Sequence record: KM389306.1
Length of the DNA stretch: 28,538 nt
From: Escherichia phage Phi06_2974 B
Direction: 5' to 3' (one strand)
This document shows positions 18,499 through 28,538 of the stretch, in pieces. Every line of letters begins with the position of its first letter. Position 1 is the stretch's first letter. The notes under the pieces were generated by a model that searched no databases, was not told where the DNA came from, and saw only the letters and a program-made list of their open reading frames with translations. The position numbers were made by a program, and so were the translations under genes.

Positions 18499-18601
18499 AT
18501 CAACCCACAGGTATGCACTGTGAGCCGACCAGGGTTCAGTCAGTCTCGCGAGACCAGACTAGCCTGCCATATTTTCATTGATTGCAAAAGGCTTACGGAT
18601 A

Positions 18602-19372
18602 ATGAAAGAACAATCTTTACCCATCGTCCCATGGATTGGCGGTAAACGTCGTCTGGCGAAGCATATTTTACCATTGTTTCCGGCCCATACCTGCTATGTG
18701 GAGCCGTTCTGCGGGGCAGCTGCGCTCTATTTCCTAAAGACTCCCAGCAAGACCGAAGTCATTAACGATATCAACGGGGAACTGGTGAACCTCTATCGGG
18801 TGGTCAAGCATCATCTGGAAGAATTTATTCGCCAGTTCAAATGGGCGCTGGTCAGCCGTCAGATTTACAAATGGTTGCAGGATACGCCGGAAGAAACGCT
18901 CACCGACATTCAGCGGGCGGCCCGGTTCTACTACCTGCAGAAACAGGCATTTGGCGGCAAGGTCGCCGATCACACATTCGGTACCTCTACAACCAGTGCG
19001 CCGCGCTTCAATTTGCTGCGTATTGAGGAAGAACTGTCGATGGCACACCTGCGCCTGTCGAGAACGCTGATAGAGCATCTGGACTGGCACCAGTGCATAG
19101 AGCGATATGATCGCCCGCATACGCTGTTCTACTGTGACCCACCGTACTGGGGAACGGAAGGCTATGGTGTGGAGTTCGGGCTGGAAAACTATGATCACAT
19201 GGCAGATTTAGCGCGAAGGATCAAAGGGAAGATGATTATATCAGTGAACGATATCCCGGAAATGCGGCAGGTATTCAACGGTCTGAACATGCAGTCGGTT
19301 GATATCAGCTACAACCTTAAGGTAACAGGCAAACCCAGCCCGAAGAAAGAGCTGGTAATTTGTAATTTTTGA
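18602..19372 (+). CDS. DNA N6-adenine methyltransferase (Dam-like, orphan)
   Basis: ORF track 18578..19372 (TTG) trimmed to ATG 18602; motifs WIGGKRR, EPFCGAAAL (AdoMet binding) and DPPY (catalytic); no adjacent restriction endonuclease gene. Confidence 0.8.
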   Translation: MKEQSLPIVPWIGGKRRLAKHILPLFPAHTCYVEPFCGAAALYFLKTPSKTEVINDINGELVNLYRVVKHHLEEFIRQFKWALVSRQIYKWLQDTPEETLTDIQRAARFYYLQKQAFGGKVADHTFGTSTTSAPRFNLLRIEEELSMAHLRLSRTLIEHLDWHQCIERYDRPHTLFYCDPPYWGTEGYGVEFGLENYDHMADLARRIKGKMIISVNDIPEMRQVFNGLNMQSVDISYNLKVTGKPSPKKELVICNF

Positions 19373-19389
19373 AAGAGGTAGTTAAAGGT

Positions 19390-19412
19390 GGTGGTGCATC
19401 TGCAGCACCACC
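19390..19412. terminator. putative terminator hairpin between convergent methyltransferase and lipoprotein genes
   Basis: GGTGGTGC (7-nt loop) GCACCACC perfect 8-bp stem, 18 nt after MTase stop and 8 nt after lipoprotein stop; flanking runs only moderately U-rich. Confidence 0.45.
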
Positions 19413-19419
19413 TAAACAT

Positions 19420-19953
19420 TTAATCCTGCCTTGGACAAGTCCAATAATCATTATCTGGCTCTGGTGAATAAGCTTTCAAACAACCTGCTCGCGGGGTCTT
19501 ACCATCATCTGTCATAGGAACTTTTTCCTTATCAAGTTTCACGGTCAGGTCTCCACCAGGAACATCCGTTTTATCGAAAAAAACAGCCTGACATGCTGAT
19601 TTAGATATTTTCACTTCGTGGGCATTATTTGATATGAACAAATAACAATTATGACCAGAGGCTATGTAGTCACTTGGAATATTATTTTCGTCTTTAATAT
19701 GAAACTGCACCGTTGTCACCGGGCGTTCGCTATCCTCGGATACTTCGACTTTTTCAAAACTGTCCGCGTACTTATCCAGGCCGGGGAGTTGTTGGCGAAT
19801 AAACGGTAATTCGCGATTTACAACCGGATTATCTGTTTCAACGCTAAAAACCGCGTGCTCCTTAGCTGTGGTGGACGTATCAGCAGGATCGGTATTATCT
19901 CCACACCCAGATAAAACAAATATCAACGGTAAAAATAATTTGCGCATAGTCAT
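19420..19953 (-). CDS. lipoprotein of unknown function (moron downstream of repressor)
   Basis: ORF track 177 aa; N-terminus MTMRKLFLPLIFVLSGC = signal peptide + LSGC lipobox; visibly lower G+C than flanking phage genes. Confidence 0.6.
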   Translation of the reverse strand: MTMRKLFLPLIFVLSGCGDNTDPADTSTTAKEHAVFSVETDNPVVNRELPFIRQQLPGLDKYADSFEKVEVSEDSERPVTTVQFHIKDENNIPSDYIASGHNCYLFISNNAHEVKISKSACQAVFFDKTDVPGGDLTVKLDKEKVPMTDDGKTPRAGCLKAYSPEPDNDYWTCPRQD

Positions 19954-19988
19954 GTCCTTATACCTCTAATGTTCTTAATAGGAACAGA

Positions 19989-20399
19989 TTAACCCGTATT
20001 TTTTAATCTTTCGAACGCTGCGGACAGCTCCTTAAGCTGTTTTTCCATATCAATCATTCGCTGTTTTTCCTCAGCGCCTCGCAGCAACTCTTTTCGCACC
20101 TCTGGCTCCAGTTGGTTGAGCAGCTCCAATAACTTCAGATCAGACTGGTTGAAATGCTGCTCCTGATTAGCTGGCTGTGCTTTCTCTACCCCAACAGCTT
20201 CCCCTTTACCAGTAAGTAGCCAATCTATTGATATGTTCAAATGGGTGCTTAGCGCAACAAGAGCCTCTGCATTAGGTTCTCTCTCTCCACGCAGATAGTT
20301 TTGAAGTGAGCGATATGGAATTTTTGACAAGTCTGACAATGCCTTAATTGTCAGACCCTTAGCATCCATCGCTTCGCGCAATCTCTCTTTTATACTCAT
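19989..20399 (-). CDS. prophage repressor, XRE-family HTH with coiled-coil C-terminus
   Basis: ORF track 19989..20495 (TTG) trimmed to ATG 20399; MSIKERLREAMDAKGLTIKALSDLSKIPYRSLQNYLRG... typical Cro/CI-type HTH; divergent from early operon. Confidence 0.65.
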   Translation of the reverse strand: MSIKERLREAMDAKGLTIKALSDLSKIPYRSLQNYLRGEREPNAEALVALSTHLNISIDWLLTGKGEAVGVEKAQPANQEQHFNQSDLKLLELLNQLEPEVRKELLRGAEEKQRMIDMEKQLKELSAAFERLKNTG

Positions 20400-20487
20400 T
20401 TGAACATATCTCAATTTGACATACCCGTTTGGGTGCGTACAATAGACCCAATAGAGTACATCATAACCCAACAGGAACACGGTGCAT
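20400..20487. promoter_or_regulatory. divergent early promoter/operator region
   Basis: Plus strand: -35 TTGACA (20416..20421), 16-bp spacer, -10 TACAAT (20438..20443); direct repeats CAATAGA at 20440..20446 and 20450..20456 overlap the -10. Confidence 0.45.
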
Positions 20488-20712
20488 ATGAACAAACAAC
20501 AAGTTCGGGCACGGCTGGTTGAAAGAGGCAGTAGCTTGCGCCAGTTCGCGCTTAACGCGGGCTATGAGCCACGAACAGTCACCCAGGCTGTCAGCCGCTG
20601 GGCAGGCAAAAGCGAACTTCCACGCGGTCGTTTGACTTATCGGATTTTGCGAGACCTTTCGGTCGCAATAGGCAAAGAAGTTACCCCCGGCATCCTCAAG
20701 GAGGCGTCATGA
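20488..20712 (+). CDS. Ner/Cro-like small DNA-binding protein (first early gene)
   Basis: ORF track 20482..20712 (GTG) with ATG at 20488; 74 aa; segment LRQFALNAGYEPRTVTQAV resembles Ner-family HTH. Confidence 0.5.
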   Translation: MNKQQVRARLVERGSSLRQFALNAGYEPRTVTQAVSRWAGKSELPRGRLTYRILRDLSVAIGKEVTPGILKEAS

Positions 20713-21935: not shown

Positions 21936-23705
21936 ATGAGTGCCGCCCTGACTGAACGACTGGTTTATGTTGCCCGCGCGGCACGTGACGCGGGGCATGG
22001 TAAGCGTGGTGCGATATATGATGCCGCCTGCGCCGAACTGGGCATTTCCCGCGCCACCCTGCTGCGCAAGCTGAAGGAGGTATCAGTGACTGACAAACGT
22101 AAAAAACGCGCCGATGCCGGGCGCAGTGCCCTGAGCCGCGACGAAGCCGCGCTGATATCTGCCACGCTGCGCGAGGCCACCCGTAAGAACGGTAAGCGCC
22201 TGTATTCCATCGCGGATGCGGTGGAGACCCTGCGGTCAAACGGCTTTATCACTGCTGGCAGAACGGACGAGGCCACAGGCGAGTTTTTCCCGCTGTCCGA
22301 GGACACCATCAGCCGCGCCCTGCGGAACTATGGTCTGCACCCGGAACAGCTTGACGCACCGGCCCCGTCGTCCGAGATGGCCAGCCTGCATCCCAATCAC
22401 GTCTGGGAGATTGATGCCTCACTTTGTACGCTTTACTACCTGAGCAACGGCCATAAAGGGTTGCAGGTGATGGACAGCTCGAAGTTCTACAAGAACAAGC
22501 CTGCCAACATCGCCCGCATCGCCAGTGACCGCGTGTGGAGTTACGAGATTACCGACCATACCAGCGGCTGGATTTACGTTGAGTACGTGATGGGTGCGGA
22601 ATCTGGTGAGAACCTCTGTTCTGTGCTTATCAACGCCATGCAGGAGCGCGGCGGCGCGGACGTGCTGCACGGCGTGCCGAAAATACTCTACCTTGATCCC
22701 GGTTCGGCGAACACCGCTGGCATGACGAAAAACATGTGCCGCTCGCTGGGCATCAATCTGATAGCGCACAAGCCGCATAACGCCCGCGCCACCGGGCAGG
22801 TGGAAAAGGCCCGTGACATTATCGAACGTAAACTGGAGCCGGGTCTCAAATTCCAGCCGGTTCATAGCCTGGACGAACTGAACGCGCTGGCGGTGAAATG
22901 GCGCAGCCACTTTAACGCCACGGCGGTCCACAGCCGCCACGGTAAAACCCGCACGGATATCTGGCTGAAGATTACTGCTGACCAGCTGAAAAAAGCGCCA
23001 TCCGTTGAGGTTTGCCGCGAACTGGCGGTGGCCGCACCGGAACTCCGTAAGGTCACACCAAAACTGCGCGTCTCGTTCCGGGGCAATGAGTTTGACGTTT
23101 CGACGGTACCGGGCGTACTGGTCGGCGAAAAACTGATGATTACCCGTAACCCGTGGCGCAGCGATGTGGCGCAGGTGGTGCTGACCGGTGAGGACGGTCA
23201 CGAGACGTTCTTCCTGGTCGAAGAGGTCAGAAAGAACGAGTTCGGCTTTGCCGAAAGCGCGGCGGTATTTGGCGAAAACTACAAAGCCCTGCCGGAGACC
23301 CCGGCGCAGACGGCGGCAAAAGAAATCGAAGAGCTGGTTACGGGCACCGATAACGCCACCGATGCAGCTGCTGCACGCAAGGCGAAGGCGCTGCCGTTCG
23401 GCGGGCGACTTGACCCGTACAAACATATCGACGACACCACGCTTCCGGCCTATATGCCGAAGCGCGGTCAGGCTTCAGACGTGCGCGGGCCGCGTATTGA
23501 GCAGCGTCCGCTGACCCATGTGGAGGCGGCGAAAGCCCTGCGCGAGAAGTTTGGCGCTAACGGCCATATCTGGACGCCGGAACATTACCGCCAGTTAACG
23601 GCGCAGTACCCGGATGGCGTACCTGAAGCCGCGCTGGATGAGGTGATGGTTACCCTGACCACTCCGGCCCGCAACAGCGTTATCAGCATCGTTAACGGTA
23701 ACTGA
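21936..23705 (+). CDS. DDE transposase (Mu-like phage transposase A)
   Basis: ORF track 589 aa; SD AGGAGG; N-terminal HTH; candidate catalytic triad D160 (WEID), D254 (YLDPGS), E290 (GQVEKA) with D-94-D-36-E spacing. Confidence 0.75.
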   Translation: MSAALTERLVYVARAARDAGHGKRGAIYDAACAELGISRATLLRKLKEVSVTDKRKKRADAGRSALSRDEAALISATLREATRKNGKRLYSIADAVETLRSNGFITAGRTDEATGEFFPLSEDTISRALRNYGLHPEQLDAPAPSSEMASLHPNHVWEIDASLCTLYYLSNGHKGLQVMDSSKFYKNKPANIARIASDRVWSYEITDHTSGWIYVEYVMGAESGENLCSVLINAMQERGGADVLHGVPKILYLDPGSANTAGMTKNMCRSLGINLIAHKPHNARATGQVEKARDIIERKLEPGLKFQPVHSLDELNALAVKWRSHFNATAVHSRHGKTRTDIWLKITADQLKKAPSVEVCRELAVAAPELRKVTPKLRVSFRGNEFDVSTVPGVLVGEKLMITRNPWRSDVAQVVLTGEDGHETFFLVEEVRKNEFGFAESAAVFGENYKALPETPAQTAAKEIEELVTGTDNATDAAAARKAKALPFGGRLDPYKHIDDTTLPAYMPKRGQASDVRGPRIEQRPLTHVEAAKALREKFGANGHIWTPEHYRQLTAQYPDGVPEAALDEVMVTLTTPARNSVISIVNGN

Positions 23706-23715
23706 GGAGGAAGGC

Positions 23716-24882
23716 ATGCTGGTACTGAAGCAACAACTGAAAGAGGCCCGCATCCCGCAGGCGGTGGTGGCAAGAGCCGTCGCCGTTTCCGAGGCCACGC
23801 TGGCCCAGATTGTGAACCATAACGAGTGGCCACGCACCAGCCCCGAAGAGGTACGCCAGCGTCTGGCGTTGTATCTGGAAAGTAAGGGGATTGATACAGC
23901 GAAAAGTTTTGATGCTGCACAGGGCGCTGTCACGCCCCGTACAGCGGGTACTACCGATAAAACCAACCTCAGTGAGGAAGAGAACATGTTACTCAAAAAG
24001 CAGGTGTTATTTCCAGCAACCAAAAAAGCGTTTGGCCTTTTCCGTGATCCGTTCGCCGATGAAGCCATGCAGGGCGCGGACGATGTGTTCACCACGCCGG
24101 ATATCCGCTACGTGCGTGAGGCGCTGTTCCAGACCGCCCGCCATGGTGGCTTTCTGGCGGTTATCGGCGAGTCCGGTGCGGGTAAATCCACGCTGCGCCG
24201 CGACCTGATTGAACGCGTCAACCGCGAGAACGCGCCGGTGATTGTAATTGAGCCATACATCATCGCCATGGAAGACAACGACGTGAAGGGCAAAACCCTG
24301 AAGGCGGCAGCTATCGCCGAGGCCATCATCAGCACCATCGCGCCGCTGGAGAGTATCAAACGCAGCCAGGACGCCCGCTTCCGCCAGTTGCACCGCGTCC
24401 TGAAGGACAGCAGTCAGGCGGGTTTCAGCCACGTTCTGGTGATTGAGGAGGCCCACAGCCTTCCCATTCCGACGCTGAAGCACCTTAAACGCTTCTTCGA
24501 ACTGGAGTCCGGCTTCAAAAAACTGCTGTCCATCGTGCTGATTGGCCAGCCTGAACTGGCGGACAAACTGTCCGAACGCAACATGGAAGTCCGTGAGGTC
24601 GTCCAGCGCTGCGAGGTGGTTGAATTGCTGCCGCTGGACAACAGCCTCGAAGAGTTTCTGACGTTCAAACTGCAACGTGCCGGTAAGCAGCTGGCCGACA
24701 TCATGGACGCCAGCGCAGTGGAAGCCATCCGCGCCCGTCTGAGCAATCTGGGTAGTAGCCGTAAAAGCATGGTCAGCCTGCTGTATCCGCTGGCCGTCAG
24801 TAACCTGGTGATAGCCGCCATGAATCTGGCTGCTGAAATCGGGGTTCCGCAGGTCAACGCCGACGTCGTCAAAGGAGTTTAA
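23716..24882 (+). CDS. AAA+ transposition ATPase (MuB/TniB-like)
   Basis: ORF track 388 aa; SD GAGGAGG; Walker A GESGAGKST at 24166..24192, Walker B-like VLVIEEAH; immediately downstream of transposase. Confidence 0.75.
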   Translation: MLVLKQQLKEARIPQAVVARAVAVSEATLAQIVNHNEWPRTSPEEVRQRLALYLESKGIDTAKSFDAAQGAVTPRTAGTTDKTNLSEEENMLLKKQVLFPATKKAFGLFRDPFADEAMQGADDVFTTPDIRYVREALFQTARHGGFLAVIGESGAGKSTLRRDLIERVNRENAPVIVIEPYIIAMEDNDVKGKTLKAAAIAEAIISTIAPLESIKRSQDARFRQLHRVLKDSSQAGFSHVLVIEEAHSLPIPTLKHLKRFFELESGFKKLLSIVLIGQPELADKLSERNMEVREVVQRCEVVELLPLDNSLEEFLTFKLQRAGKQLADIMDASAVEAIRARLSNLGSSRKSMVSLLYPLAVSNLVIAAMNLAAEIGVPQVNADVVKGV

Positions 24883-24884
24883 TC

Positions 24885-25154
24885 ATGAAATCCATCGCCG
24901 ATATCAACCAGCAGATGAACAAGGTGCAGTCCGCCATTATGGCGCTCAACGCCATGAACACTACCGTGCAGAGCGTCATGATTGCTGGCAGTAAGCCGGT
25001 TATCCGTATCGCCCGCAACGGGCACTGTGCCCGCCTGCTGGAGCAGGGCAAAGCGAGTTATACCCATGTTGGCCATGACGGCTCAGGGCGCTTCCGTCAG
25101 GGCGTCTTTGAGTTGCATGGCTGCCGTATTACCTGGTCAGAGTCGTTACATTAA
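24885..25154 (+). CDS. hypothetical protein (89 aa)
   Basis: ORF track; ATG with SD AAAGGAG 3 nt after ATPase stop. Confidence 0.45.
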   Translation: MKSIADINQQMNKVQSAIMALNAMNTTVQSVMIAGSKPVIRIARNGHCARLLEQGKASYTHVGHDGSGRFRQGVFELHGCRITWSESLH

Positions 25155-25171
25155 CCATAAGGTGAACAGAG

Positions 25172-25783
25172 ATGAGCGAAGTAAATAAAGAAAACTACAT
25201 GAAAGACCGCAAGGGGCGTCTGGTGCCGGTTGACCAGGTGTCTGACTATGACCTTGCGATGGACTCTTTCGTTAAAGAACAGGTTGTCGCCGCGAAGGTT
25301 AAACGCGATGAACTCAGTGACTTCAAGCGTCGTGCCTTTGACGAGTGCTATGCCTGGCTTGACCTTGTGGCCGAGAAGTACGGCAGAACGCGTGGCGGTG
25401 CCAAAGGCAACGTGACCTTCAGCAGCTTCGACGGTGCTCAGCAGATCACCATCCGCGTGCAGGAAACCCTGACCTTCGGGCCAGAGCTGCAGATTGCCAA
25501 AGACCTGATAGACGAGTGCGTCACCGAGTGGTCGGAAGGCGCGAACGCCAACCTGCGGGCCATCATCAGCGATGCTTTTCAGGTGGACAAAGAGGGCCAG
25601 CTTAATACCGGACGTATTCTTTCCCTGCGCCGCGTCAAGATTCAGGACGAGCGCTGGAACCGGGCAATGGAGGCCATATCGGAATCACTGCAGGTGGCAA
25701 TGTCCAAAACCTATATTAATTTCCGGGAGAAAGATAAACACGGGAAGCTAATTAATATTCCGTTAGATATCGCTGCCATTTAA
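25172..25783 (+). CDS. Mu-like early-region conserved protein (DUF3164-like as recalled)
   Basis: ORF track 203 aa; ATG with SD AAGGTGA; family assignment from memory only. Confidence 0.45.
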   Translation: MSEVNKENYMKDRKGRLVPVDQVSDYDLAMDSFVKEQVVAAKVKRDELSDFKRRAFDECYAWLDLVAEKYGRTRGGAKGNVTFSSFDGAQQITIRVQETLTFGPELQIAKDLIDECVTEWSEGANANLRAIISDAFQVDKEGQLNTGRILSLRRVKIQDERWNRAMEAISESLQVAMSKTYINFREKDKHGKLINIPLDIAAI

Positions 25784-25861
25784 TTTTAATTCAATTTCTT
25801 TTTATTTCGGCGTCAGTGCCGTGGGCTTCTGCACGCCGAAAACAGCATTAAGGAATAAATC

Positions 25862-26050
25862 ATGTCCATCAAATGTATCAACTGCCAGAAAGGTATCACC
25901 ACCCTGAAGTTCAGCGACGCCAGCGTCATTTCCTCCGGTAAGTACCGCGTACCAGCCGTCCTCATCACGCTGGTATGCCCACACTGTAGCCAGCATTACT
26001 ACACCGAAGTCCCGGCCATGGAATTCATCCCTTGTGAGGCAAAGAAATGA
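25862..26050 (+). CDS. small zinc-ribbon protein (CxxC...CxxC)
   Basis: ORF track 62 aa; ATG with SD AAGGA; Cys pairs CINC and CPHC about 35 residues apart. Confidence 0.5.
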   Translation: MSIKCINCQKGITTLKFSDASVISSGKYRVPAVLITLVCPHCSQHYYTEVPAMEFIPCEAKK

Positions 26051-26319
26051 TTACTGCAAAAGAAGCCGAAAAACGGACCCGTGAAATTGTCGCGGAATAT
26101 ATCAGTGAATGTGGTTGTGAAAATCCCAACCATATCCGGCAGGTATTAATCAAATTAATCAGCATGGCTTCACACGCCATCGTAGCAACAAATGGCCTAG
26201 ATCAGGCTATTTACGTTCTTCACGCCACCAGTGACCACCTGAGAAAAATGCCGCCGCTGTACGAGCTGGAAATTACTGAGGACGGCCACGTGAAAGTTAT
26301 CGGCGTATCACGCCATTGA
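26047..26319 (+). CDS. hypothetical protein (90 aa)
   Basis: ORF track; ATGA overlap with preceding gene; lower G+C. Confidence 0.45.
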   Translation: MITAKEAEKRTREIVAEYISECGCENPNHIRQVLIKLISMASHAIVATNGLDQAIYVLHATSDHLRKMPPLYELEITEDGHVKVIGVSRH

Positions 26320-26334
26320 TTTGGGGAAGATAAG

Positions 26335-26631
26335 ATGAAAGGCATGAAATTATATAACCGTTCGACGATCTACAATCTGGCCCTCAAAACCTTCGGCCCA
26401 GAAGCTCAGGCTCTGAAGCTGATGGAAGAAGCTGCCGAACTGGCCGCTGCTGCTGCCCGCAACATGAACGGACTGGGCAATGAAGTTGATCTGGCAGGCG
26501 AACTGGCTGACGTTGAAATCATGATTGAACAGTTCCTCCTAAACGGGATGGGCCTGATGATTGATTTTCATAAGCAGAAAAAGCTGGAACGCCTTGCCGA
26601 ACGCCTGGGGGTGACTTATGCCGCAGAATAA
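26335..26631 (+). CDS. putative MazG-like nucleotide pyrophosphohydrolase (all-alpha NTP-PPase fold)
   Basis: ORF track 98 aa; SD GGGGAAGA; paired acidic motifs LMEEAAELAAAAARN and LAGELADVEIMIEQ resemble the EExxE / ExxD metal-binding helices of small MazG-like proteins. Confidence 0.35.
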   Translation: MKGMKLYNRSTIYNLALKTFGPEAQALKLMEEAAELAAAAARNMNGLGNEVDLAGELADVEIMIEQFLLNGMGLMIDFHKQKKLERLAERLGVTYAAE

Positions 26632-27307
26632 TGAAAAGCTGCTGGAGAAGTTAAAAAAGCTACTTGCGCTGGCTAAATCCGATAACCCCCATGAAGCGGC
26701 ACTGGCACTGCAACGCGCCCAGAAACTGATGCAGGCCTATAACATCACCCAGGCTGACCTCGCACTCAGTGATATTGATGAAAGCGTCAGTAACTACTGG
26801 GCTGCAGGTAGCGTTAATCCGCCGCGTTATATGCTGGGTCTGCTGGATATTATCCAGGTGGCATTTGGCGTTAAGTCTATTATTCACTCCGGCTTTAAAC
26901 CCGGCGTTGGCTTTTACGGTAATAAAGACCGGGTTGAACTGGCCTCATATACATGGGAGGTACTGGCCAGACAGTTAATCATGGCCCGTAAAAACTATAT
27001 TCGACAGCAGAATAAAAGAATCAAAAACACGACCAAGACCAGCCGTGGTGACAAATTTGCCGAAGGGTGGGTTCTGGCCGTGCGTAGCGAGGTTCATTTA
27101 TTTGCTATGTCCCGCGAAGAACGGGAGCTGGCAAACCTCTGGCTTGAACAAAAATACCCTGATTCAGGAACAACCTCTGGCCGCAAAGCCGGTAAATCCC
27201 GTGACGCGGACATGTCCCGCCACATCGGTTACAGAGAGGGAGAAAACGTCCGTCTACATCAGCCTGTCAGCGGGCAGGAACAGCGGAAGCTGGGGAGTGG
27301 CTTATGA
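26618..27307 (+). CDS. hypothetical phage protein (N-terminal motif resembling DUF2786 family as recalled)
   Basis: ORF track 229 aa; overlaps upstream gene by 14 nt; N-terminus LLEKLKKLLALAKSDNPHEAALALQRAQKLM; basic C-terminal half. Confidence 0.4.
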   Translation: MPQNNEKLLEKLKKLLALAKSDNPHEAALALQRAQKLMQAYNITQADLALSDIDESVSNYWAAGSVNPPRYMLGLLDIIQVAFGVKSIIHSGFKPGVGFYGNKDRVELASYTWEVLARQLIMARKNYIRQQNKRIKNTTKTSRGDKFAEGWVLAVRSEVHLFAMSREERELANLWLEQKYPDSGTTSGRKAGKSRDADMSRHIGYREGENVRLHQPVSGQEQRKLGSGL

Positions 27308-27519
27308 TGGCTGAATCAATTGTATGTGCCTTGTTCTGGTATGGTCTCGTGGGGTGGTGTACTGCTGAACTGCACCGCCGTTCAGGGTTTTACTCACGTT
27401 ACAGCGGTACCGGACACTGGATCAGTTGGGCCGTTATGTTCCTGTGCTGGCCTGTCGCGCTTCCTTTATATGTCGACTATATCGGTGGCGCAGGTAAAAG
27501 GAGTGGCAATGATGACTAA
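27304..27519 (+). CDS. small membrane protein (two predicted TMDs)
   Basis: ORF track 71 aa; ATGA overlap with previous stop; hydrophobic stretches SIVCALFWYGLVGW and WISWAVMFLCWPVALPLYV. Confidence 0.45.
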   Translation: MMAESIVCALFWYGLVGWCTAELHRRSGFYSRYSGTGHWISWAVMFLCWPVALPLYVDYIGGAGKRSGNDD

Positions 27520-27937
27520 GCAGCGTCTTATTCAACTCATTCATATTGCCCGCAGCGACCTCCAGATGGATGAGGACACCTACCGCCAGATGCTACAGGG
27601 GCTGACCGGCAAAGCCTCAACCAAAGGGATGGATACCCCACAGCTAAACCGCGTGCTGGAATCAATGAAAAAGAAAGGCTTTCGCATTAAGCCTGCCGGG
27701 AAAGCCAAGTCCGGCTTACCGCTCGACAGCCATCCGCAGTCAAAGAAAATCCGTGCGCTATGGCTTGAAATGGCTGCCGCAGGCATCGTCCGTGACAGTT
27801 CAGAGCAGGCGCTGGCGCTGTGGGTTAAACGGGAAACCGGCATCAGCGCGTTACGCTGGCTCAGCAATGAGCAGGCAAGTAGCGTGATTGAGAAACTGAA
27901 GAAGTGGCAGCGCAGAGCTGCGGGAGTGAAGCAATGA
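27509..27937 (+). CDS. gemA: GemA-like regulatory protein (Mu gp16 family)
   Basis: ORF track 27320..27937 trimmed to ATG 27509 (SD AAAAGGAG); 142 aa MMTKQRLIQLIHIARSDLQMDEDTYRQML... resembles Mu GemA; directly upstream of Mor homolog as in Mu. Confidence 0.55.
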   Translation: MMTKQRLIQLIHIARSDLQMDEDTYRQMLQGLTGKASTKGMDTPQLNRVLESMKKKGFRIKPAGKAKSGLPLDSHPQSKKIRALWLEMAAAGIVRDSSEQALALWVKRETGISALRWLSNEQASSVIEKLKKWQRRAAGVKQ

Positions 27938-28323
27938 GCGACCTGAATCAGTTTCGTAGTAAAGGGCCGGAACTGTTGGTGGAACTGGCACAGCATACCT
28001 CTGAGACTGTCCGCGAGATTATTGATATCGAACCCGCAGTTGCCGACCAGATTGGTCAGGCCGTCGCGAACCGCATGATGCAGGTCTGGGGTGGGCAAAA
28101 CGTCTATTTTCCGATGGGCATGGTCTGGAAGGTCAGCCAGCGCGACCGGGAAATTTTCCTGGAGTTTGACGGGCGCAACCATCACGAACTGGCCCGCAAA
28201 TTTGGTGTTTCACTACAGTGGGTTTACAGCGTGGTGAAGCGGGTCAGAAAAGAAGAACTGGATCGGATGCAGGGCAAACTGTTTGATGGCGAACCTGATG
28301 CCGATACAGGGAAAAAGGAGTAA
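27934..28323 (+). CDS. mor: Mor/C-family transcriptional activator (middle/late gene activator)
   Basis: ORF track 27904..28323 trimmed to ATG 27934 (overlaps gemA-like stop); 129 aa with C-terminal HTH region YFPMG...ELARKFGVSLQWVYSVVKR typical of Mor/C family. Confidence 0.65.
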   Translation: MSDLNQFRSKGPELLVELAQHTSETVREIIDIEPAVADQIGQAVANRMMQVWGGQNVYFPMGMVWKVSQRDREIFLEFDGRNHHELARKFGVSLQWVYSVVKRVRKEELDRMQGKLFDGEPDADTGKKE

Positions 28324-28352
28324 TATCTGCAATCAGGCTGGTGCGAGTTCTG

Positions 28353-28404
<52 letters not shown>

Positions 28405-28538
28405 ATCCAGTCTCTTCCCATGTTGACCCAGTACTTCCCATAATTATCTCACTTATCCCCTGTCATTTATCTCAAGTCTAATCACATGCCCTGACGCCAG
28501 AGAAGAGAGTACAGCATCATGCCCCGGTAATCACGGGT

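Follow-up and report, generated by a model that had tools for sequence, protein, structure and literature searches.

The stretch of DNA analysed here (hereafter the window) comprises 28,538 nucleotides of Escherichia phage Phi06_2974 B (sequence record KM389306.1) and is a Mu-type transposable prophage, in which a cassette of seven small plus-strand genes, g1 to g7 (24885-27519), lies between the gene of an ExeA-type transposition ATPase and gemA and mor, its wider surroundings including Mu-type head and tail genes and a DDE transposase gene. The first gene, g1 (24885-25154), encodes an 89-amino-acid (aa) protein of the HI_1482/SuMu_7 family and directly precedes a slot that holds either Gam or DUF3164 and is occupied here by g2 (25172-25783; 203 aa, DUF3164, PF11363). 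An AT-rich intergenic element with a stem-loop follows on the same strand (25784-25861), and after it come g3 (25862-26050; 62 aa, a CxxC...CxxC zinc ribbon), g4 (26047-26319; 90 aa, a small stand-alone protein of phrog_3691), g5 (26335-26631; 98 aa, a minimal MazG-like all-alpha nucleoside triphosphate (NTP) pyrophosphohydrolase), g6 (26618-27307; 229 aa, basic, with DUF2786 and DUF7168) and g7 (27304-27519; 71 aa, two hydrophobic segments), which overlaps the start of gemA.

Since most of their differences from the sister lineage of this prophage, the PhiKM type, fall at third codon positions, the seven open reading frames (ORFs) are real genes, and each of them matches a PHROG family (E 8e-15 to 1e-81). 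The junctions from the ATPase to gemA measure, in order, +2, +17, +78, -4, +15, -14, -4 and -11 nt, with overlaps at four of the seven within and after the cassette, so that the initial annotation, which had placed seven mostly translationally coupled genes at these positions, was right on both counts; its equation of the block with the semi-essential early region of Mu is likewise borne out by the order B, cassette, gemA, mor on a single strand. For every gene except g5 the best PHROG family is one of unknown function, g1 having in addition a weak match to the Kil family. The same annotation had found no classical toxin, restriction or abortive-infection motif; no PADLOC defence model matched the cassette beyond a single chance-level hit (E 0.028), none of the PHROGs annotated as anti-defence was matched by its proteins, and an NCBIfam scan returned nothing informative. 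The reality of the genes, their synteny, family assignments and modular variation and the mutual exclusivity of Gam and DUF3164 are shown by the data; all the biochemical functions discussed for these proteins are inferred. As an early region of Mu type the cassette is ordinary and had been sequenced before, and the main new result is the alternation of DUF3164 and Gam.

DUF3164 and Gam alternate in one slot

In prophages of the PhiKM type a Gam gene directly follows the g1 homologue, exactly where the window has DUF3164, and when the DNA of the two types is compared, homology is lost at 25127 and found again from 25792, at the stem-loop element, which coincides with the right-hand boundary of the swap. 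The exchange recurs in two Pseudomonas lineages, in one of which LPB1 (DUF3164) and JBD30 (Gam plus gp14, a 68-aa gene) have flanks that are 97% identical, while in the other the downstream flanks of B3 (DUF3164) and H72 (Gam) are 96% identical. Three gemA-anchored scans of IMG/VR, read with local hidden Markov models, gave 168 distinct Mu-like loci in which 4.5 kb or more of sequence precedes gemA; DUF3164 alone was found in 131 of them, Gam alone in 34, neither in three and both in none. On the gemA tree this pattern requires at least seven state changes, and lineages differ in where the slot lies with respect to B and gemA, its end falling up to 2855 bp (median 1333 bp) before the gemA ORF. 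The Mu Gam/Ku family (PF07352; PDB 2p2u) and DUF3164 occupy the same slot in at least four phage lineages, never together, and are of similar size (174-176 aa for Gam, 203 aa for g2). Searches of a phage collection found DUF3164 in 208 records and Gam in 139, with no accession in common among the matches listed, and a six-frame search of the window at E <= 10 gave no Gam. Even in very distant Mu-like loci, whose ATPase is about 50% identical, the slot with DUF3164 or Gam and a DUF2786 protein are the only parts of the cassette that recur. We infer that a Mu-like early region can hardly ever do without one or other of the slot genes.

A different explanation would be that DUF3164 and Gam are functionally unrelated and exclude each other by competing for a single slot that is prone to recombination and has conserved sequences on either side, or by being incompatible. 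The swap begins and ends in conserved sequence, at the 3' end of g1 on one side and the stem-loop element on the other, the swapped units sometimes carry extra genes (gp14 with Gam in JBD30, two further ORFs in B3/H72) and no structural or sequence likeness between the two families was found, all of which would suit such a competition. A neutral cargo slot, however, would often be empty or hold many alternatives, whereas 165 of the 168 loci hold one of the two genes and at least two of the three exceptions appear truncated or minimal; one of these, the high-G+C Mu-like contig L135 (8403-10672), has a single 146-aa ORF between ATPase and gemA that is neither Gam nor DUF3164, and is a naturally minimal early region. 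The exclusivity holds, moreover, although the slot lies differently with respect to B and gemA from lineage to lineage, and we regard simple competition for a site as rather unlikely.

A candidate replacement for Gam

The g2 protein covers 193 of the 194 positions of the PF11363 model with 267.6 bits (cut-off 23.7) and matches no other Pfam family; the best-conserved feature of DUF3164 is a G-G-x-K-G-N loop at residues 75-80. An AF2 structural model (predicted local distance difference test score, pLDDT, 83.7; predicted template modelling score, pTM, 0.54) has, in order, two short strands, a 45-residue helix, a hairpin, four helices and a second hairpin. Foldseek found no match for this model in BFVD at E <= 0.001, the Gam/Ku-like fold (PF07352) was not recognised in g2, and the hhalign comparison of the DUF3164 and Gam families gave a probability below 15%. 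Neither the profiles nor the predicted structure, then, offer evidence that DUF3164 is a hidden Gam homologue. Because the gene displaces Gam in its slot, the most economical reading is that DUF3164 covers the need that Gam meets, as its putative non-homologous functional replacement. In the slot held by Gam in Mu, D3112/JBD30, H72 and PhiKM, g2 would shield linear double-stranded DNA ends or otherwise neutralise a RecBCD-type exonuclease by way of an unrelated fold. Lambda Gam, T7 gp5.9 and P22 Abc2 are phage antagonists of RecBCD with unrelated folds and provide a precedent for this. Gam itself binds double-stranded ends and blocks the loading of RecBCD, according to the summary given in PMC12407980, and in a roseophage study a DUF3164 protein was detected by mass spectrometry in phage preparations, which is a weak hint (PMC5488378).

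It is a tentative possibility, short of even chances, that DUF3164 represents a structurally new family of DNA-end-protecting proteins or RecBCD antagonists that has repeatedly displaced Gam and, with 131 of 168 loci, is the commoner of the two in Mu-like phages. A link would then exist between the alternation and recent work in which end binders of the Gam type made phages sensitive to Gabija, the Gam and GemA proteins of JBD30 each licensing Gabija targeting (preprint, PMC12407980): the alternation may reflect host systems that sense Gam-bound ends, with DUF3164 handling RecBCD without tripping Gabija-type immunity. The licensing by Gam as a selective reason for the alternation is speculative. 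JBD68, considered as an example of a Gabija-resistant phage with DUF3164, was dropped, the paper calling it lambdoid and the phage being absent among the DUF3164 matches listed. For DUF3164, which is present in most of the Mu-like phages sampled, including well-studied ones of Pseudomonas, Burkholderia and Ralstonia, the alternation yields a specific prediction, that of a Gam replacement, and if it is true the family would add a new fold to the phage answers to RecBCD. LPB1/JBD30, B3/H72 and the window and PhiKM types are natural isogenic pairs in this respect.

The element behind the slot and the age of the central genes

The 78-nt gap between g2 and g3 has a G+C content of 0.397 and contains a stem of 9 bp (25805-25813 paired with 25833-25841); its minimum free energy is -22.9 kcal/mol against -15.1 +/- 2.9 for shuffled sequences (z = -2.66). 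It is built of a T-run, a G+C-rich stem, AAACAG and a ribosome-binding site of the GAGGAATAAA type, the Shine-Dalgarno sequence of g3, and the same build recurs downstream of Gam in the sister lineage and of gam in Mu (L005 6326-6423). In an alignment of 13 sequences, 89.7% of the cells are paired, a share that falls to 32-53% if the partner is shifted, and two pairs are compensatory, UA having become CG once in the Gam lineage and once in Mu. No Rfam family matched the gap at E <= 1. As an intrinsic terminator the gap was rejected, there being no U-tail after the stem on either strand and no entry for it in the terminator scan. A stem-loop also lies behind gam in SuMu (L239 5948-6005), where it bears no sequence relation to that of the window.

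This gap, described in the initial annotation as AT-rich and structured, is both, yet the role of acquisition mark that it had been given does not fit: because the sister lineage and Mu both retain the element, and with compensatory changes, comparison of the sequences points to an ancestral boundary or regulatory element and not to the scar of a recent acquisition. In the early region as we picture it, it would mark a module boundary after g2.

The further proposal that g3, g4 and g5 (25862-26631) are recently acquired anti-defence cargo of lower G+C can be weighed on composition and on synteny. The cassette as a whole (G+C 0.511) does lie below the window (0.560), and g4 is its lowest gene (0.465; G+C at third codon positions, GC3, 0.47), followed by g5 (0.505), g6 (0.507) and g7 (0.509). 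The description of the central three as AT-richer is thus apt for g4 and g5 but not for g3 (0.519), whose GC3 of 0.70 is the backbone value shown by the transposase genes; the dip is modest, extends from g4 to g7, and puts the 770-bp stretch from g3 to g5 merely at the 7.5th percentile of segments of the same size in the window. Against a recent arrival stands the sister lineage, which has the same gene order, with homologues of g1, g3, g4, g5, g6 and g7 at amino-acid identities of 67, 56, 44, 70, 65 and 87%, respectively; because the homologues stand there in the same order, g3 to g5 are, as judged from these alignments, long-standing residents, and it already looks likely that g3 and g5 co-diverge with B and gemA. 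In favour of an import it can be said that the homologues of g3 to g6 in the sister lineage have a higher G+C content (0.53-0.59), so that the low values of g4 to g6 are specific to the sublineage of the window and could reflect diverged alleles brought in from elsewhere, and that g4 is a clean indel among near-identical prophages. Taken together with the conservation of the gap element as far as Mu and the lack of any match to known defence or anti-defence families, these data make a recent acquisition of the three genes improbable, the claim finding no support for the block as a whole and retaining some force for g4. To read a compositional dip and an AT-rich gap as signs of recent acquisition is a common habit, which this case corrects.

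The lowest G+C of the window (0.42-0.445) lies outside the cassette, at 19-20.5 kb. The stretch around it (18500-20500, G+C 0.42-0.50), between the lysis genes and the early promoter candidate, contains a DNA adenine methylase gene (18578-19372, plus strand) and two minus-strand genes (19420-19953 and 19989-20495), and is a stronger candidate for imported cargo than the island reported within the cassette.

Exchange at gene boundaries

The indel that removes g4 is precise (281 bp, 26051-26331); the gene is absent from L002, L003, L004 and KP12, present in about six of 25 close DUF3164-type loci, and the only one of the cassette with a clean presence/absence polymorphism. Strain EcPF16 and KP12 have, in place of g6, an unrelated protein of 128-164 aa, and relatives carry optional inserts for a basic protein of 75-76 aa and a hydrophobic one of 71 aa. 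The rates of change differ as well, for between the two enterobacterial lineages (window and L009) the ATPase is 94% and GemA 87% identical in protein, whereas g1 and g3 to g6 are at only 41-68% (g7, 88%); by these comparisons most of the cassette appears to diverge or recombine much faster than its flanks. An invariant cassette, by which the initial annotation would have been refuted, is therefore not what the relatives show; gene content varies by exchange at gene boundaries, and the cassette is best seen as a constant scaffold of slots, with related phages trading what fills them. The label accessory suits only part of it, in that two of the seven genes, those of DUF3164 and DUF2786, belong to the early genes that Mu-like phages conserve widely and are not accessory cargo.

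Possible counterparts of Mu Kil and gp6

The g1 protein matches phrog_2041 (E 3e-33) and, with E 0.005, the Kil family phrog_6381, and is named 'HI_1482 family' by the Prokaryotic Genome Annotation Pipeline (PGAP). When its family, built with a length filter, was compared by hhalign with SuMu_7, which is encoded directly upstream of Gam in SuMu, a classical Mu-like phage of Haemophilus, the probability was 96% (E 3.5e-9), and profile comparison makes the two clearly homologous. With Mu Kil the same program gave 48-66% (E 6e-5 to 2e-4) over 64-70 of 74 residues, end to end; both proteins are basic (pI 9.9 for g1, 10.2 for Kil) and have a C-terminal G-C-x-I-x-W in common, so that g1 is a possible distant homologue of Kil. 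Expression of Mu kil makes E. coli spherical, as stated in PMC3961180 with reference to Waggoner 1989, and g1, as the member of the HI_1482/SuMu_7 family that always precedes the slot, would probably be a host morphology or killing factor. In one IMG/VR relative (L031 1998-3440) the ATPase is fused in frame to the g1 homologue in an ORF of 480 aa, which may be a frameshift or a genuine fusion.

For g3, which matches phrog_3401 (E 9e-32), hhalign aligned both CxxC pairs with those of Mu gp6 (67% probability, E 5e-5), and on this profile match it is possibly a gp6 homologue, a Mu-gp6-like zinc ribbon. Both matches agree with the order B-kil-gp6 of Mu.

The genes g4 to g7

A profile search of 1.84 billion proteins collected 64 representative clusters for the family of g4 (40-132 aa, most about 80 aa), all of them small stand-alone proteins in phrog_3691, the closer ones from Enterobacterales and Shewanella; no Pfam or PDB relation and no annotated relative appeared among them, and in the early region g4 would be an optional protein. 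A promoter-like pattern (TTTTCA-16-TATATT with an upstream TG) is found antisense within the gene, on the minus strand (26096-26123).

The g5 protein belongs to phrog_2245, 'nucleoside triphosphate pyrophosphohydrolase' (E 3e-30), and bears the PGAP name 'nucleoside triphosphate pyrophosphohydrolase family protein'; the metal-binding and catalytic motif EExxE...ExxD can be read intact from its sequence (E31-E32-A-A-E35 and E56-L-A-D59). In the phage collection tblastn found it in three records only, all enterobacterial (Klebsiella, Escherichia). It resembles the MazG-like pyrophosphatases of other phages, such as Atd1 and cyanophage MazG, in having a single all-alpha NTP-pyrophosphatase domain with this motif and in lying among early or accessory genes, and differs from them in its length of only 98 aa, below the Pfam thresholds. 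Atd1 of Pectobacterium phage PcCB7V depletes (p)ppGpp and counters TIR-STING toxicity (bioRxiv 10.1101/2022.06.09.495361), and the cyanophage enzyme is reported to be a pyrophosphohydrolase that cannot hydrolyse (p)ppGpp (PMC6850273). The likely role of g5 would be to manipulate the nucleotide pool or an alarmone.

The g6 protein is basic (pI 9.7) and scores well above the Pfam cut-offs for DUF2786 (50.4 against 23.9) and DUF7168 (86.7 against 25.5). It has a weak KH-like core, in which the type I KH domain, with its beta-alpha-alpha-beta-beta-alpha fold and GXXG loop, was not recognised; for g4, g5 and g6 alike, sequence searches gave no meaningful relative of solved structure, and the literature on DUF2786 gave no functional data. 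Two g6 relatives of 364 aa, P0197 and P0199, combine an SprT-like metalloprotease domain (PF10263) with DUF7168 and DUF2786, and these fusions hint that the DUF7168-DUF2786 module acts on or near DNA-protein complexes. We would expect g6 to be a nucleic-acid-binding protein, probably. The last protein, g7, matches phrog_6436 (E 8e-15), and its hydropathy profile, with hydrophobic segments at about residues 1-22 and 37-58, indicates that it is probably a small membrane protein, a two-helix membrane peptide.

Properties such as these could also mean that the cassette mainly provides helpers for replicative transposition and DNA handling and not anti-defence functions, DUF3164 and DUF2786 being cofactors of DNA transactions. 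The corresponding interval of BcepMu encodes HU (gp04) and single-stranded DNA-binding protein (SSB, gp03) beside DUF3164, g6 is basic with its KH-like core and in some relatives is fused to the SprT-like domain, and conservation of both DUF3164 and DUF2786 extends to Mu-like phages that are only very distantly related. Left unexplained, however, would be the strict alternation with Gam, and the cassette genes diverge far faster than those of transposition. As Gam itself protects ends and inhibits nucleases, the two views overlap, and we consider that of transposition helpers possible, although on balance unlikely.

Comparison with known early regions

The block resembles the early region of Mu, which runs from kil through gp6-gp9, gam and gp11-gp14 to gemA and mor, in its position and strand, in its tightly packed small genes, in the possible Kil and gp6 counterparts in the same order and in the stem-loop of the same build behind the Gam slot. 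Unlike Mu, it has an ATPase of the ExeA type and not MuB, no Gam, and no counterparts of gp7-gp9 or gp11-gp14 that hhalign could detect in the window, and it carries the DUF3164, MazG-like and DUF2786 genes, which Mu is without. The early regions of BcepMu (gp07-gp03) and B3 (ORF10-ORF3) share with the window the divergent layout, the ExeA-type ATPase, gemA and mor at the end and DUF3164 (gp05 and ORF6, respectively). In B3-like phages a DUF2786-type protein directly follows DUF3164, and BcepMu differs from the window in the HU and SSB genes of its interval.

We favour, as the probable explanation, a BcepMu-like (Bcepmuvirus-type) transposable prophage of E. coli whose semi-essential early region is this block, with DUF3164 as the presumed replacement of Gam. 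The cassette would form the distal end of the transposase operon and be read from an early promoter. A sigma-70-like candidate, TTGACA-16-TACAAT (11 of 12 consensus positions), was found by a consensus scan at 20416-20443 on the plus strand, and the terminator scan showed no convincing plus-strand terminator between it and mor. Such a region is a reasonable place for functions of host takeover or counter-defence, and an anti-defence role is plausible for g2, by its slot, and for g5, by its MazG-like nature.

Several observations weigh against this explanation. Three loci have neither slot gene, and mutual exclusivity points to a near-constant need for one of the two and is not proof that both act by the same mechanism. 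Lambda Gam and gp5.9 are acidic DNA mimics; unlike them, g2, whose homology was looked for in PDB and PHROG searches, has a balanced charge (33 acidic and 31 basic residues, pI 5.65) and is neither markedly basic nor acidic. The links to Kil and gp6 are weak (48-67% probability), and g5 falls short of the Pfam gathering scores (PF03819, 13.7 against 22; PF01503, 19.9 against 21.3). The literature on DUF3164/PF11363 gave mentions and no functional data, and both the early promoter and the co-transcription of the cassette are predictions from pattern scans.

Genomic setting

The late genes of the prophage are on the minus strand and run leftward from about 20.5 kb. The early operon runs rightward and comprises, in order, a helix-turn-helix gene, a DUF3102 gene, the DDE transposase gene (21936-23705), the ExeA-type ATPase gene (23716-24882), g1 to g7, gemA (27509-27937; Pfam GemA, E 5e-41) and mor (27934-28323; Pfam Mor, E 1.3e-42), the last two also so annotated by PGAP. 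The ATPase, the MuB analogue of BcepMu/B3-type phages, is homologous to BcepMu gp08 and B3 ORF11 and is called 'ExeA family protein' by PGAP in E. coli prophages that are 99.7-99.9% identical.

Prophage DNA in E. coli chromosomes matches the cassette with 99.9% identity. In a search of 5426 complete genomes at least 80% of it was present in 23, and 181 records matched it at the g7 end only, with 80-90% identity. Among isolated phages, Klebsiella phage KP12 and Escherichia phage PhiKM come closest, and PhiKM is classified in Bcepmuvirus. In the lineage of the window the prophage stops directly after mor, where it adjoins the truncated integrase of a P2-like prophage (window 28324-28538; L001 7440-8059), and sister prophages have an additional gene of the 'Gp27 family' behind mor.

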